From contig CBDCCK010000002.1 in assembly GCA_965214835.1 (NCBI GenBank), positions 1,088,001 to 1,152,000 on the forward strand: DNA of 64,000 nt. Reading direction: 5' to 3'. Position numbers and translations under genes: made by a program. Below, piece after piece: positions 176 to 48,475 of this stretch. The DNA is from Nitrosopumilaceae archaeon. Lineage in GTDB: Archaea > Thermoproteota > Nitrososphaeria > Nitrososphaerales > Nitrosopumilaceae. Numbering within the stretch: the stretch's first letter is position 1; every line of letters starts with the position of its first letter. Below the pieces are notes generated by a model that saw only the letters and a list, made by a program, of their open reading frames with translations, did not search any database and was not told the DNA's origin.

Positions 176-1261
176 ATGAGCTCCAAACGCGATTACTACG
201 AGGTCTTGGGGGTTGACAAGTCCGCATCTGTGGGCAACATCAAGGCGCAGTACAGGAAGCTGGCGCTAAAGTTTCACCCGGACAGAAACAAGTCCAAGGA
301 GGCAGCTGAGCACTTTAAGGAGATCTCCGAGGCCTATGCCGTCCTGTCCGACCAGCAAAAGCGCCAGACCTATGATCAGTATGGACACCAGGGCATAGAC
401 GGTCAGTACAGCCAGCAGGATATCTTCCGGGGCGCGAACTTTAACTTTAACGACCTGTTCGGAGGTTCAGGCGGGGGATTTGACTCTATTTTTGAAAACC
501 TGTTTGGCGGGGAGAGGGGGTTTGGCGGCTATGGCAGGCAGCGCGGTTCTGACCTGCTTTATGAGACCCAGATCACCCTAGAGGAGGTCCTGCACGGAAA
601 AAAACTGGAAATCGACATGAAAAAGGAGATTCCGTGCGAGACCTGCAGCGGCAAAGGCTGCAAGCCTGGAACCTCCAAGACCAGATGCACGTCATGCAAC
701 GGGCAGGGACAGGTCAGGCAACAGCGCAGAATGGGGTTTGCATCATTTGTTACGGTTGTACCGTGCAACTCGTGCCGCGGGCAGGGGATGATGATCACTG
801 ATCCCTGCGCCTCCTGCAAGGGAAGGGGCAAGACCAGGGGAAACAAGCACCTTGGCTTTGAAATTCCCCCCGGCACCCAGACCGGTGACTACACCATTCC
901 CGGCGAGGGCGAGTATGTGCCTGATGGCGTGAGCGGGGATCTTGTGGTCAGGGTCAGGGTGCTGCCTCATTCGAAGTTCAGGCATGACGGTGTTGACCTG
1001 TTCTATGATCAGGACATAACAATCGTTGATGCTGCACTGGGGATAGAGGCGCTTGTCCCCACACTGGACGGAAGCGAGAAGATCAGGGTCGAGGAGGGAA
1101 CCCAGCCCAACTCCATCAGGAAGCTAAAAGGCAAGGGGCTGCCCTATCCGAATTCCGGCAGAAGGGGGGATCTTTTTGTCAGATTTGTCGTGCATGTGCC
1201 TGAAAAACTAGGCAAGGATCAAAAGAAGATTTTACGGGAATTTGAGCAGACACTTGGCTGA
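176..1261 (+). CDS. dnaJ: Chaperone DnaJ
   Basis: J domain with HPD, G/F region, four CxxCxGxG repeats. Confidence 0.98.
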
Positions 1262-1267
1262 TTTTCC

Positions 1268-1813
1268 ATGAAGATTGCCCTTGATGTTGATGGCGTGCTA
1301 GCAGACGTCATACTCTCCTGGATCAAGCAGAGCAACCGGCACCGCGACCGGCTGACCAAGGAGCAGATCACCAGCTGGGATTTTTGGAGGAGCCACAACA
1401 TCAACAGGTATGATTTTTACAAGGAGCTGTCAGACTGCTGGAAAAGCTGGAAGACCGTTCCGCCAACGGAAAAAAGCCTGTCAAGGAGCACAAAAAGGCT
1501 GTCGGAGTTTGGCCAGGTTGATATTGTCACTGCCCGGGAAAAGTCTACCGATGAGTTTGTCAGACAGTGGCTGAGTCTTCACGACATCTCATACGACAGC
1601 TATGTCTCCGTTGTAGACGGCACACTCAAGGCCGGTCTTGACTATGACGTATTCATCGATGACTCGCCACTCAACGCAACTGCGCTCGCTGAAAAAAACA
1701 GGACTGTGCTGCTATATGAGCAGCCCTGGAATGCGGATTTTCACAACCCAAAGTCGGTTCGTATCTCCTCATTAAGCGACGCCATAGAAAGGATCAGCCG
1801 GATTTCTTCATGA
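1268..1813 (+). CDS. HAD-superfamily 5'(3')-deoxyribonucleotidase-like protein
   Basis: DVDGVLAD motif I, VTAR, FIDDSP. Confidence 0.85.
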   Translation: MKIALDVDGVLADVILSWIKQSNRHRDRLTKEQITSWDFWRSHNINRYDFYKELSDCWKSWKTVPPTEKSLSRSTKRLSEFGQVDIVTAREKSTDEFVRQWLSLHDISYDSYVSVVDGTLKAGLDYDVFIDDSPLNATALAEKNRTVLLYEQPWNADFHNPKSVRISSLSDAIERISRISS

Positions 1814-2127
1814 GTCGTATCTCCACCTGGTGTCCCTCTCTTACGTGCCCTGCATGGCTTGATTTTAGGAACTCCCCGATCTTATCCTCGGTATAAAACC
1901 TCCTGTTATAGCGCCCAATCACCTTTTTGCAGTTTCTGCAGTAAATCTCGCTGTATTCCAACAAGGCCGGCTATGCTGATGGTGTATTTGTACTGATCAA
2001 TAGAGAAACCGTAAGGCCTACTCTCATCGCAGAAGATAGGCAAGCTTGAGGCCCGGATTGACGACGTGTTCAGGGAGAGCCAGGAGCTCAAGACCCCTAG
2101 CTGGGCAGGGTTAACCGTAAACCCAAG

Positions 2128-2268
2128 ATGACAAAAAGGGCAAGCATACCACTGACCCTCAAGGAATGGGACGCGCCGGATGCGGCTGCACACAAGGCCA
2201 AGATGCAAGTCCGCCCTGCTGCGCTCGGTTCTGGCAGGCTCCAAGGTGATTCCGGCGTTAGCCGCTAA
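2128..2268 (+). pseudogene. Frameshifted ribbon-helix-helix (CopG-like) regulator remnant
   Basis: MTKRASIPLTLKEWDAPDAAAHKAKM, then KSALLRSVLAG in a shifted frame: strand-helix-helix pattern. Confidence 0.45.
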
Positions 2269-2321
2269 CGGTTACCGCCCGATCCTTACTTTTTTATAGG
2301 AATATCTCCAATAGATTATAA

Positions 2322-2416
2322 CGTTGGCGACGGGAATTGAACCCGCATGAACGGCCCGGCTAGGGGCCACTCGCCGAGGCTTCAGCTCGGTGGGCTTGCC
2401 AATGCCCAACACCAAC
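2322..2416 (-). tRNA. Atypical tRNA: GAA (Phe) anticodon, long variable arm, G73
   Basis: Minus strand folds as GTTGGTG/CGCCAAC acceptor, GGGC/GCCC D stem, CCGAG-CTGAAGC-CTCGG anticodon arm, 9-bp variable stem, GCGGG-TTCAATT-CCCGT T arm. Confidence 0.85.
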
Positions 2417-2451
2417 GTTATTTTCTGCCTTGGTATATTTAGATTAAAAAA

Positions 2452-2678
2452 TTAGGATTTCCTGACAGGCTTGATGATATGAATCCGGCACGCCTTTAGC
2501 GGATCACTGTCATCGGTTCTCTGCACCATGAGCAGCTTTGGCGTCTCAAAATCCTCGGTACACTTGGGGCAGGCGTACGTCAGAACCCGGAACTCGTTTG
2601 GATTCTTAGCGTGCTCAGCTGCGGATAATACACCAGCTGGGAGCCGCAGTTGATGCAGAAGCACTTGACTGTGGCCAT
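2452..2678 (-). pseudogene. Frameshifted small Zn-ribbon protein (CxxC...CxxC)
   Basis: MATVKCFCINCGSQLVYYPQLS continues after a frameshift as AKNPNEFRVLTYACPKCTEDF; a second Cys-rich ORF end (ITCTVCKCKFVEEA*) overlaps its start. Confidence 0.5.
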
Positions 2679-2858
2679 CAGGCCTCCTCCACGAACTTGC
2701 ACTTGCAGACGGTACACGTTATGATCTGGCCGGGCTCGACCCGGGCTGTCTGCTCAATTACAGCAAGGCGTGACTATCAATCGTCTTATTATAGCAGCGA
2801 GCAGAAGTCTTTGAGTCAAAACAGGGTTCATTCGAAAAGTACAATGATCACGTAACCG

Positions 2859-3173
2859 GTGCAGTGGGCATGGCAAAAGAAACGGACGGCCTACGGGATC
2901 CTCCCCGTTCCGGATGCAGGCGAGGCGCACGGAAAAAGGATTGCCGCCATAATGAACCTATCCATTGAACGCAACAGTACCGACGTCATGACGGTGCGTG
3001 ATGGCACAAGGGATGCCACCGGGACAGAATACAACACAGGACATGTCCAAGGACTGATGCGCCGGCACGGCCTGTCGCACCGCAGGGTGCAAAATGTACA
3101 TGTCAGCCATGCCGCCCCAACCCGGCGGGATGGTGTACAGAAGGATCAGCGAGCTGCGGCATGCCATGTCTGA
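2859..3173 (+). pseudogene. IS630-family transposase N-terminal (winged HTH) remnant
   Basis: YNTGHVQGLMRRHGLSHRRVQNVH resembles the IS630 HTH segment; no DDE domain follows. Confidence 0.55.
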
Positions 3174-3388
3174 GTATTACAGGACGGCGTTGTTTGCCCG
3201 CCTTTACATGTACAAGTACATTTGCAGATCGCCGGTCAAAGCCCTCAATTACTTGTGACCGTTGTCATATTCAAGGAGGATTTGACGGATTATCTCAGGG
3301 AGCCCAAACCCCCCGATGTCAGGTTCGGGGTACTTTTCACTTAGCTGATCACACAAGAAACTTATTCTAGAGCCTTGATCTGAAGGGT

Positions 3389-3473
3389 GCGGGAGTCGCC
3401 AAGCCTGGTCAAAGGCGTAAGGTTCAGGTCCTTATCTCCTAGGGGTTCGTGGGTTCGAATCCCACCTCCCGCA
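3389..3473 (+). tRNA. tRNA-Leu(CAG)
   Basis: GCGGGAG/CTCCCGC acceptor, TAAGG-TTCAGGT-CCTTA anticodon arm, long variable arm, GTTCGAATC T loop, A73. Confidence 0.97.
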
Positions 3474-3591
3474 CTATAATCAAGATCCCCCGCCTGAGCT
3501 AGTCGGCACGTGGAAGGGCAGAGTCTTCAACCTTGTTGCTGGGCGTGAGCCTGACGGTTGTGCCAGCGCCGCAAGGCTGGACTTGCAGATC

Positions 3592-3712
3592 GTAGTAGGA
3601 CGGCCCTGGGCAGAATTGAAGTCACGACCCCTAGGGCCGGACAGGCATGAAAATCACGACTGCAGGCAAATGTGCGCCTGATTGCTGCCTCGGCAGGGGC
3701 CAATCCTGTTAC
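3592..3712. mobile_element. IS66-type MITE family A, degenerate copy
   Basis: Similar to 40650-40767 and to both ends of IS66 24179-25766; ends GGCAGGGGCCAATCCTGTTAC; imperfect 8-bp flanks TGCAGATC/GGTAGATC. Confidence 0.75.
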
Positions 3713-40767: not shown

Positions 40768-41289
40768 TGAAACCTCAATTCCCATCATCTCATAGTGATT
40801 TGAAATGTCTCTTACACTCATTCCCGAATAATACATTTGAAGCGAACCTGTAACCACATTCTCATCAAACTGCTTTTTCTCAAATCCAATATTTTCAGAG
40901 AATTTCTTTTTACAGTCCAGACACTCAAAAATTCTGACCTTGCCATTCTTGTTCTTTCTGAATCCATCTTTTCTTAATCTGCCAGAATCACAATACTTGC
41001 ATAGCTTTAGTTGTGAGCGTTCCATGATTCTAAACTCGTTGTTTCCGTAACACTTGTTTTGCTTGATAATTTCTAAAACGATTTTGATGTGCTTACAGTC
41101 AGACTTTCTTATCTCATGATCCTTGCATTCACACCTAAGACCATTATCAGTCTTTGACACGATATAGAATTTTTCTGGATTGGTTTGTGATCTTACCTTG
41201 AACTTATCTGACTCAATCTGTGAACAGTGACCTTTATCTTCCATCATGGATTGAGCTCTTTGAGTTCGTGAATTCACGTAATAGTATTA

Positions 41290-48299: not shown

Positions 48300-48304
48300 A
48301 AAAG

Positions 48305-48394
48305 TAGCGGGGAGTAGATTTGAACTACTGATTTGCGGGTTATGAGCCCGCCGGGATGACTTTGCCCAAAAGCGTCTGACTTCCCCACCCCGCT
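48305..48394 (-). tRNA. Initiator tRNA-Met(CAT) with a 15-nt D-loop intron (48361-48375)
   Basis: A1-U72, GCGGG-CTCATAA-CCCGC arm; removing ACGCTTTTGGGCAAA restores D loop AGTCAGGTCA. Confidence 0.92.
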
Positions 48395-48475
48395 GGATCA
48401 ACAATCCATCTGGGCAGTATATACGAGTTATCAAATTCTTGAAAGTAATTAATATGATTCGTCAAAACCGACTTT

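Follow-up and report, generated by a model that had tools for sequence, protein, structure and literature searches.

A structurally conserved family of class II tRNA genes with NAN anticodons and a Ser-type discriminator in accessory DNA of Nitrosopumilaceae

The window analysed here is a stretch of 64,000 nucleotides (nt) from a Nitrosopumilaceae archaeon (assembly GCA_965214835.1, contig CBDCCK010000002.1, positions 1,088,001 to 1,152,000), and the element in question is a supernumerary transfer RNA (tRNA) gene at positions 2322-2416 of its minus strand, in the following called copy A. The source genome (G000) comprises 3.22 Mb with a G+C content of 52.6%. Copy A is part of an insertion of about 1.39 kb which separates an NT5C-like gene region from a canonical tRNA-Leu(CAG) gene and which contains, besides the tRNA unit, an open reading frame (ORF) of 46 aa, an ORF of 70 aa and a repeat of about 570 nt (Table 1). 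In two genomes of the same genus the spacing between the two boundaries is only about 190 nt (G001) and about 40 nt (G004). The original prediction had considered a mobile element as a possible carrier of the gene, and its position within a repeat-rich insertion which these two genomes lack agrees with that.

Table 1. Coordinates of the tRNA genes and accompanying features. Positions are those of the window or of C2 in the source genome unless another genome or locus is named.
Feature	Location	Strand	Anticodon	Ser model (bits)	Leu model (bits)	Basis or remark
Copy A, supernumerary class II tRNA gene	window 2322-2416	-	GAA	34.8	33.1	ARAGORN, Rfam, fold, family model
Copy B	C2:1826707-1826801		GAU	37.2	31.3	
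Copy C	C2:2887469-2887563		CAG	36.4	35.4	
Copy D	C2:182875-182968		GAU			
Copy E	C2:1824011-1824095		GAU			
Copy F, diverged sixth copy	C2:914323-914409		CAG	40.4	31.1	common flanks
Canonical tRNA-Leu(CAG), A73	window 3389-3473	+	CAG	63.7	107.3	syntenic anchor; control for model scoring
Canonical tRNA-Phe	C2:2398337-2398413		GAA			A73-CCA, 5-nt variable loop
TATA-like A/T-rich element TTAATCTAAATATACC	window 2432-2447	-				about -31 to -16 from the tRNA 5' end; alignment of paralog flanks
Conserved 5' flank of the unit, with A-run directly 5' of the tRNA	window 2417-2461	-				blast between paralog loci
Conserved 3' flank of the unit	window 2275-2321	-				motif CTATAAAAAAG at 2289-2298; paralog flank alignment
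Insertion of about 1.39 kb	window 1964-3354					blast of 1700-3700 against orthologous loci L013, L014
Multi-copy repeat inside the insertion	window 2780-3350					sliding 60-mer blast against the genome
Second short repeat	window 3620-3709					
46-aa ORF, convergent on the tRNA 3' end	window 2128-2268	+				no family match
70-aa ORF with CPxC motif, just upstream of the tRNA unit	window 2452-2664	-				three paralogs in the genome
126-aa ORF of G002 at the orthologous locus	L008 (G002:C61) 1024-1404	-				no known family
GNAT gene with preceding 47-aa ORF	L004:583-1251; C2:2886551-2887219	+ (in L004)				near copy C
Ser-derived extra tRNAs W, Z1, Z2	C2:381279-381363, 702318-702405 (Z2), 2806142-2806225					relatives L078, L074, L066
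Diverged SWIM/IS-like ORF	window 40768-41277 (C2:1128768-1129277)	-				57% identity
Second extra-tRNA family	C2:66616-66687, 2234423-2234494, 2756709-2756780, 3019690-3019761, 2749119-2749192		AAG, GAA, AAG, GAG, GUC			72-74 nt, A73
Extra initiator tRNA-Met copies	window 48300-48395; C2:65293-65382	- (window copy)				D-loop insertion
Canonical initiator tRNA-Met	C2:1610594-1610671					
tRNA with CCU anticodon, G73	C2:148334-148418		CCU	62.5	47.0	15-nt variable region

Copy A encodes a structurally intact, full-length class II tRNA. ARAGORN called a tRNA-Phe(GAA) at window positions 2321-2417, and the Rfam tRNA model (RF00005) matched the gene end to end over model positions 1-71; the score of 45.7 bits exceeds the gathering score (29), and the E-value for the window is 1.5e-6. 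The minimum-energy fold is a cloverleaf with a perfect 9-bp variable stem without bulges (GAGUGGCCC/GGGCCGUUC); its energy is -45.3 kcal/mol (z -2.98), and only one of 200 shuffled sequences folded equally well. The acceptor stem has 7 bp, the T stem 5 bp and the D stem 4 bp with a D loop of 8 nt. The variable stem is closed by the 6-nt loop CUAGCC and is preceded by one and followed by two (AU) unpaired bases, which gives a variable region of 27 nt. Cloverleaf and long variable arm had been proposed before from the letters, and the residues listed at that time, namely U8, A14, GG in the D loop, U33, the anticodon G34-A35-A36, G37, the T loop (UUCAAUU), the pairs U2-A71 and U3-A70 and the discriminator G73, are all readable in the gene. 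The U at positions 15 and 48 also agrees with the numbering. In addition there are the pairs U6.G67 and G49.U65. CCA is not encoded, and an eighth acceptor pair (C-1:G73) could form only if the leader were included. Between the anticodon loop of copy A (CUGAAGC) and that of the genome's own tRNA-Phe (CUGAAGA) there is a difference at one position. A reading as tRNA-Sec was rejected: that tRNA requires a 9/4 arrangement of acceptor and T stem, a long D stem with a 4-nt loop and the anticodon UCA, none of which copy A has.

A blastn search with the 95-nt sequence revealed five copies in the source genome (A to E), and a diverged sixth one, copy F, was recognised by its common flanks. The bodies of the paralogs are nearly identical, with 4-6 differences per 95 nt, while three different anticodons are found on them. 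Canonical tRNA-Ile(GAU) and tRNA-Leu (CAG, UAG, GAG) genes exist elsewhere in the genome, as does the canonical tRNA-Phe. The unit common to the paralogs comprises about 47 nt downstream of the tRNA and about 45-80 nt upstream of it, where a TATA-like TAATCTAATATAC is located at a distance of about 25-30 nt. The TATA-like element of copy A is kept in copies B to E and is, judged by its position, a putative promoter. The A-run directly 5' of the tRNA (2417-2425 at copy A) is also present in the copies of another genus, g2, and a YTATAAAA motif, which resembles the 3' motif of copy A, lies about 28 nt 3' of the tRNA in copies of the genera g2 and g4.

Copies A, B and C are intact. Among these three only one of the 61 stem columns varies (C-G to U.G), in contrast to 42 of the 99 flank columns (Fisher p 6.7e-10), which indicates that the RNA fold is under selection; the stems had already been described as intact for copy A. 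The remaining variable columns are found in the anticodon loop (4/7), the variable loop (2/6) and the other loops (1/21). Copy F adds compensatory changes at the pairs 2:71, 4:69 and 50:64. Decay does occur in the family, since copy D, which has lost one nucleotide of the D arm and carries an A.C mismatch, is intact in its ortholog in G002, a genome of the same genus, and copy E has a 7-nt deletion at its 5' end. These lesions, the richness of the genome in insertion sequence (IS) elements and an anticodon loop which varies about as fast as the flanks would suit young tRNA duplicates that decay neutrally and have no function. The difference between stems and flanks argues against such an explanation, as do the retention of the family in several genera, the compensatory changes and the almost invariant A35, U33 and G73 described below, and we regard it as very improbable for copy A.

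A covariance model of the family (R1) was built from copies A, B, C and F, on which copy A scores 112.1 bits, and was run on 101 Nitrosopumilaceae genomes. From 16 fetched regions 24 members were aligned; the census therefore covers the fetched loci and not every match. Family members are found in at least eight of the 101 genomes and at least five genera. The matches in genus g2 are 93 nt long and reach 55-76 bits, with seven of them in G105 and four in G088, in part arranged in tandem; scores of 38-58 bits were obtained in G061, G049, G077, G090 and at a second locus of G002. Canonical class II tRNAs reach about 31-42 bits on the same model, the E-values of which are rough. In the alignment, which was fitted to the model and thus favours structure, 98% of the paired cells can pair, compared with 36-53% in slid controls, and 25 of the 30 pairs are changed on both sides, including all nine pairs of the variable stem. 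None of 500 shuffles reached the observed values. Structure-conserving homologs of copy A, by which the original prediction was to be judged, do therefore exist. Since G.U cells outnumber A.C cells by 35 to 9, the strand of the tRNA is also the strand that folds. The variable stems of the members have 7-9 bp, and the T loop reads UUCNANU in all 24.

The anticodons of the 24 members are GAU (9), CAG (4), GAA (3), UAG (3), GAG (3) and AAG (2). Position 34 can be G, C, U or A and position 36 U, G or A, whereas A35 is found in 24/24 members; U33 and G73 are each present in 22/24, G73 being kept across differing acceptor stems. The main point was thus overlooked in the original prediction: copy A belongs to a multi-copy family which swaps its anticodons and always keeps A35. 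In summary of these observations, the family is conserved and structure-constrained, it combines a discriminator and a variable arm of the Ser type with NAN anticodons, it resides in an accessory, mobile setting, and it has no dedicated synthetase. Outside of the Nitrosopumilaceae a class-level run over 121 genomes gave nothing comparable; the 17 best loci from other families were 13 canonical tRNA-Ser and four tRNA-Met genes. When 41 relatives were searched by blastn-type comparison, members turned up in the source genome and G002 alone, and the others were detected only with the covariance model. A 28-nt pattern over the anticodon arm was found in one genome contig record, in no viral contig and in no metagenome contig, and a distant blastn search against phages and plasmids gave only chance-level matches to the T arm.

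The covariation also bears on the question whether the 24-nt hairpin of the variable region could be an archaeal intron, the splicing of which would leave an ordinary tRNA-Phe with a short variable loop. Non-canonical introns are frequent in thaumarchaeal tRNAs (PMC8450103, in part), and in the source genome tRNA-Val(CAC) and possibly the tRNA with a CCU anticodon carry insertions in the variable region. The hairpin of copy A, in contrast, is a perfect 9-bp helix without bulges, all nine pairs of which covary as a plain stem across the family. The spliced RNA would furthermore keep G73 and an acceptor stem unlike that of tRNA-Phe, the same body bears Ile and Leu anticodons in the paralogs, and the genome possesses canonical Phe, Ile and Leu tRNAs elsewhere. 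A strict bulge-helix-bulge scan found no motif that would remove the arm, although it also missed the control introns of Val-CAC, Ser-GGA, Tyr and Met. Splicing of the arm is in our view hardly credible.

Anticodon and body of copy A disagree, as was stated in the original prediction, which described the body as Ser-like and contrasted it with canonical tRNA-Phe. A canonical archaeal tRNA-Phe has A73 and a variable loop of 4-5 nt; the genome's own tRNA-Phe is of that kind, and copy A shares with it the GAA anticodon and differs in G73, the long variable arm and the acceptor stem. Long arm and G73 are those of a tRNA-Ser. In the canonical sets of the Nitrosopumilaceae, from which a Ser and a Leu model were built, the discriminator is G73 in 17/17 tRNA-Ser and A73 in 12/12 tRNA-Leu. 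The variable stem is followed by two unpaired bases in the tRNA-Ser of the genome, just as in copy A, and by three in its tRNA-Leu. Compared with the genome's own tRNA-Ser, however, copy A has a variable stem of 9 instead of 4 bp and the unusual U15/U48. Copies A to E, copy F and all 11 members from genus g2 obtain higher scores on the Ser than on the Leu model, while the Leu model is slightly ahead for two members from genomes of roughly 2 Mb, the GAA copy of G049 (56.3 Ser, 59.3 Leu) and the GAU copy of G090 (55.4 Ser, 58.1 Leu). Conversely, the canonical tRNAs which fit the family model best are tRNA-Ser at 19 of 22 inspected loci, the other three loci being members, and never tRNA-Leu. The Ser-like character of the body thus stands with respect to discriminator and arm spacing. 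Judged by its overall sequence, the body stands far from canonical tRNA-Ser as well as from canonical tRNA-Leu, with only a weak inclination towards Ser.

Ser identity is described as resting on the size of the variable arm and on G73, independently of the anticodon (PMC9976931, in part). According to the same parts of that source, G73 acts as an antideterminant against the archaeal leucyl-tRNA synthetase (LeuRS) of Haloferax, and human tRNA-Leu becomes a Ser acceptor by the change of A73 to G. The source genome encodes one seryl-tRNA synthetase (SerRS), which has a Seryl_tRNA_N domain. Neither an extra SerRS nor a class Ia synthetase paralog was found in this genome, so that the idea of a synthetase dedicated to the family was dropped; the class Ia matches comprise one protein each of the sizes expected for the isoleucyl- (IleRS), valyl- (ValRS) and leucyl-tRNA synthetase, and a further match of 557 aa. 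Because of G73, the arm spacing, the model scores, the published identity rules and the single SerRS we predict serylation of the family RNAs, at roughly even odds.

The mechanism which we prefer, tentatively and with somewhat less than even confidence, is that copy A is a tRNA charged by SerRS that is used weakly or only under certain conditions and could insert Ser at Phe codons. The RNA would be transcribed from its own TATA-like promoter and trimmed by RNase P and RNase Z, after which CCA would be added. The single SerRS would bind the long variable arm via its N-terminal coiled coil, read G73 and charge Ser regardless of the anticodon. G34-A35-A36 together with G37 would then pair with UUC and UUU and place Ser at Phe codons, and the paralogs would do so at Ile and Leu codons. 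In yeast tRNA-Ser with a GAA or GAU anticodon is lethal once it has accumulated (PMC6125640, in part). Therefore the level of the RNA or its use by the ribosome is expected to be low or conditional, and copy A might be a regulated or selfish mistranslating tRNA in mobile DNA rather than a housekeeping decoder.

Several observations weigh against this mechanism. There is no oligo-T stretch 3' of copy A on the strand of the tRNA and thus no oligo-T terminator. U15/U48 together with G49.U65 is unusual for an elongator tRNA and may weaken its function. With 34.8 bits the body is far from canonical tRNA-Ser, its margin over the Leu model is only 1.7 bits, and the Ser model is permissive, as a tRNA with the anticodon CCU reaches 62.5 bits on it. 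Great harm is to be expected from Ser at hydrophobic codons, and nevertheless three intact copies persist, which speaks either for very low use or for a different role. In nematodes conserved mischarged nev-tRNAs are present without detectable mistranslation (PMC4300185, in part). Finally, 12 of the 24 anticodons are Leu anticodons and all are NAN, a pattern that would be compatible with charging by Leu as well, in which case the insertion of Leu at Ile or Phe codons would have mild effects.

The last point leads to an alternative in which the family members are harmless extra decoders. They would be charged to match the anticodon, by the phenylalanyl-tRNA synthetase (PheRS) for GAA and by IleRS for GAU, or with Leu by LeuRS via the variable arm, and would add capacity for abundant NUN codons or, at worst, put Leu at Ile and Phe codons. 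PheRS and IleRS depend heavily on the anticodon, and in several copies the base at position 37 suits the anticodon (GAA is followed by G37 and, in copy B, GAU by A37). The composition of the anticodons just mentioned and the higher Leu scores of the G049 and G090 members point in the same direction, and the family is multi-copy in unusually large genomes (3.2 Mb in the source genome, 3.7-3.9 Mb in G105 and G088). The discriminator does not fit such a role, since canonical tRNA-Leu (12/12) as well as canonical tRNA-Phe has A73 and G73 is the reported antideterminant for archaeal LeuRS. Furthermore, bodies which are identical but for 4-6 of 95 nt would have to switch among three synthetases, the spacing of the variable arm is Ser-like, and a separate lineage derived from tRNA-Ser carries the same kind of anticodons (GAA, UAU, GAG). 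We therefore hold harmless decoding to be unlikely. The invariant A35 is the fact which most needs an explanation. It fits selection for hydrophobic codons as targets; provided that Leu is accepted by the body after all, it would agree equally well with tolerance towards Leu in the place of Ile and Phe.

As an alternative to charging by SerRS, the RNA may not be used for decoding at all, but may be a tRNA-shaped decoy or substrate of enzymes such as toxins, nucleases and modification enzymes, a signal for the processing of an adjacent transcript by RNase P and RNase Z, or the target of an overlapping antisense RNA. The conservation of the stems and of the D and T loops, while the anticodon loop of copies A, B and C varies at about the rate of the flanks, would suit an RNA of that kind. 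Moreover, the copies sit in islands which abound in IS elements, toxin-antitoxin-like and defence-like genes. In the genera g1 and g2 the A-run and the YTATAAAA motif, read on the opposite strand, resemble a promoter and an oligo-T terminator around an antisense RNA (flanks L044-L052). The anticodon loops resemble those of the matching canonical tRNAs, as in the case of tRNA-Phe mentioned above, and U32 is found only in CAG copies (copy C and one g2 copy), as in the loop of canonical tRNA-Leu(CAG). G73, U33 and A35, on the other hand, are retained in the family and are features read by synthetases and by the ribosome. No partner gene recurs beside the copies, the toxin-antitoxin signal described in the next paragraph is no better than in control genomes, and the antisense motifs were read by eye. 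We rate a function outside of decoding as rather unlikely, though less so than harmless decoding.

The neighbourhoods of the paralogs do not point to one common partner. The ORFs which flank copies B to E were read by eye as transposases of several IS families, and a multi-copy IS starts 47 nt after copy B. At a distance of 250 nt from copy C lies a convergent gene for a GNAT acetyltransferase (169 aa, Pfam E 2.3e-9), and the 47-aa ORF preceding it has a sub-threshold TacA1 match. The two look like a TacAT-type pair, with a weak antitoxin signal: genome-wide this ORF is the only TacA1 match (15.8 bits), and six control genomes were weakly matched as well. Copy D adjoins a protein which matches the PADLOC candidate family PDC-M19A. 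A tandem pair of members in G088 is situated between genes read by eye as trpA and threonyl-tRNA synthetase. In the neighbourhoods of the copies in the source genome and in g2 no gene was found that recurs next to all of them. A miniature inverted-repeat transposable element (MITE) or cassette as carrier of the unit was also considered and rejected. The inverted-repeat-like end motifs occur, at up to three mismatches, seven times in total, which are the tRNA units and three chance matches; the homology of copy A does not end at the same boundaries as that of copies B to E, and no solo flanks were found. The same holds for an ORF inside the tRNA (41-47 aa in some copies), the start of which is not conserved in copy A and which has an early stop in g2.

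Coming back to charging by SerRS, a more far-reaching version can be formulated, which is speculative and to our mind rather unlikely: mobile tRNAs of the SerRS type which bear only A35 anticodons, and thereby read Phe, Ile and Leu-CUN codons, might act as conditional toxic or mistranslating agents that replace hydrophobic residues with Ser, are restrained by an overlapping antisense transcript or low expression and spread with IS-rich islands. If that were true, these would be the first natural archaeal tRNAs with a mismatch between identity and anticodon, and possibly a toxin-antitoxin-like module with a tRNA as toxin.

Known systems of comparable kind are found in eukaryotes and bacteria. 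With the nev-tRNAs of nematodes the family has in common the class II structure, anticodons which are neither Ser nor Leu (including Ile), the multi-copy state, the conservation within a lineage, identity elements that point to a synthetase which ignores the anticodon, and the coexistence with canonical tRNAs for the same codons. The nev-tRNAs are eukaryotic and charged with Leu, and their main anticodons are CCC (Gly) and UAU (Ile), whereas the family described here is archaeal, has the Ser-type G73, variable stems of 7-9 bp and only NAN anticodons. Copy A can therefore not be counted among the nev-tRNAs, even though it is a class II tRNA with a class I anticodon. The allo-tRNAs, as far as the available parts of PMC5389517 describe them, resemble the family in their long variable arm, in identity elements of the Ser type and in a very wide range of non-Ser anticodons, among them UAU and those for Leu; they too are associated with transposon-related and toxin-antitoxin genes, and some of their copies are degenerate. 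They are bacterial, with acceptor and T stems of 8/4 or 9/3 bp and a D arm like that of tRNA-Sec. Copy A, with its non-Ser anticodon and long arm, differs from them in its 7/5 arrangement, its 4-bp D stem with an 8-nt loop and its archaeal origin.

The combination of a body that accepts Ser with an anticodon for Leu, Phe or Ile is known from tRNA-Ser(CAG) of CUG-clade yeasts and from engineered tRNA-Ser variants (PMC6125640, in part), and the engineered GAA and GAU variants of yeast have the anticodons of copies A and B. In the CUG-clade yeasts the tRNA is encoded by a core gene, and CUG is reassigned genome-wide or read stochastically; the archaeal family is accessory, multi-copy, located in mobile DNA and accompanied by intact canonical tRNAs. 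By analogy, the family is best read as one that works like nev-tRNAs and allo-tRNAs and would be the archaeal counterpart of both. The table of a 2014 review contains no archaeal case of a tRNA with mismatched identity and anticodon (PMC4033280). In the literature no archaeal class II tRNA with an anticodon other than Ser or Leu was found, although supplementary tRNA tables, for example those of tRNAscan-SE 2.0 or of a survey of thaumarchaeal mobile elements, could hold such genes.

Natural tRNAs with mismatched identity and anticodon are rare; the citable cases come from nematodes, some bacteria and CUG-clade yeasts. The family offers a testable archaeal case with simple parts, namely one SerRS and an RNA of 95 nt, and with a rule to be explained, the retention of A35 while positions 34 and 36 are free. 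It is in addition linked to mobile DNA in unusually large genomes of ammonia-oxidising archaea. Charging with Ser and use of the RNAs would make hydrophobic codons of these organisms ambiguous in certain conditions, whereas unused RNAs would represent a conserved tRNA mimic. In either case annotation pipelines will mislabel the members as tRNA-Phe, tRNA-Ile or tRNA-Leu and thereby inflate the counts of these genes.

Regarding the other parts of the insertion, most 60-nt segments of the large repeat have 22-28 matches in the genome and a few have 5-12; the repeat is multi-copy in G002 too. A second short repeat has mostly 31-34 genome matches per 60-nt segment, and the two repeats lie on either side of the canonical tRNA-Leu(CAG). 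The 46-aa ORF is also present in G002 and at the paralogous locus beside copy F. For the 70-aa ORF only weak, sub-threshold zinc-ribbon matches were obtained. Pfam and PADLOC searches with the small ORFs (46, 56, 70, 104, 112 and 140 aa, and 126 aa of G002) gave nothing significant. The frameshifted neighbouring ORFs which had been claimed for the locus were not recovered; the ORFs of the flanks are all short, with 46, 56 and 70 aa, and a long gene in broken form was not clearly recognisable there. The 126-aa ORF of G002, for which the source genome has no homolog, occupies the orthologous locus between the same boundary sequences, immediately behind the conserved 46-aa ORF.

Contigs from sequencing runs show variation at the locus. 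In run X3 a contig with a depth of 23.6, whose shorter side measures 30 letters, connects position 2274 directly with 2446 and skips the 171-nt tRNA unit; this may represent an empty-site allele, with weak support. In runs X1, X5 and X7 a 95-nt contig variant at window positions 2329-2423 is deeper than the reference copy and has nine differences to it. Its anticodon loop is UUUAGGC (UAG), in its variable stem a G stands opposite a G, and it is absent from the assembly. A match to the Rfam family Archaea_SRP is also located in the window.

The separate Ser-derived lineage mentioned above comprises three genes of the source genome, W (GAA), Z1 (UAU) and Z2 (with an anticodon loop of 6 nt), Ser-derived GAA and UAU genes in G004 and a GAG gene in G001, all with G73. 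Their scores on the Ser model are 64-82 bits, except for Z2 with 54.6 bits. The lineage does not keep A35 throughout, as one Ser-derived gene of G001 has the anticodon UUC. An IS-like ORF with a SWIM zinc finger, of which the genome holds about 14 copies, follows Z1 and W at a distance of about 45 nt, and a Ser-derived gene of G001 lies about 90 nt upstream of a fragment of such an ORF. A diverged ORF of this type is also encoded in the window; ARAGORN found no tRNA in the 170 nt upstream of it.

Further extra tRNAs were noticed in these genomes. A second family of extra tRNAs in the source genome has A73 and Leu, Phe and GUC anticodons (Table 1); about 45-85 nt upstream of these genes, before a TATA box, there is a partial copy of their own D and anticodon arms with the same anticodon. 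In the two extra copies of initiator tRNA-Met the D loop is enlarged by about 12 inserted nt compared with the canonical copy, and the Rfam match covers only model positions 10-63. For the tRNA with the CCU anticodon two readings come into question, namely a further extra tRNA of the Ser-like kind or the canonical tRNA-Arg(CCU) enlarged by a small insertion. In G004, a genome of 4.3 Mb which has 63 tRNA matches altogether, several tRNA matches cluster within a few kb at C4:791283-807196 and C3:493064-494327, and one of them, a tRNA-Ser(UGA), looks unlike the archaeal ones.

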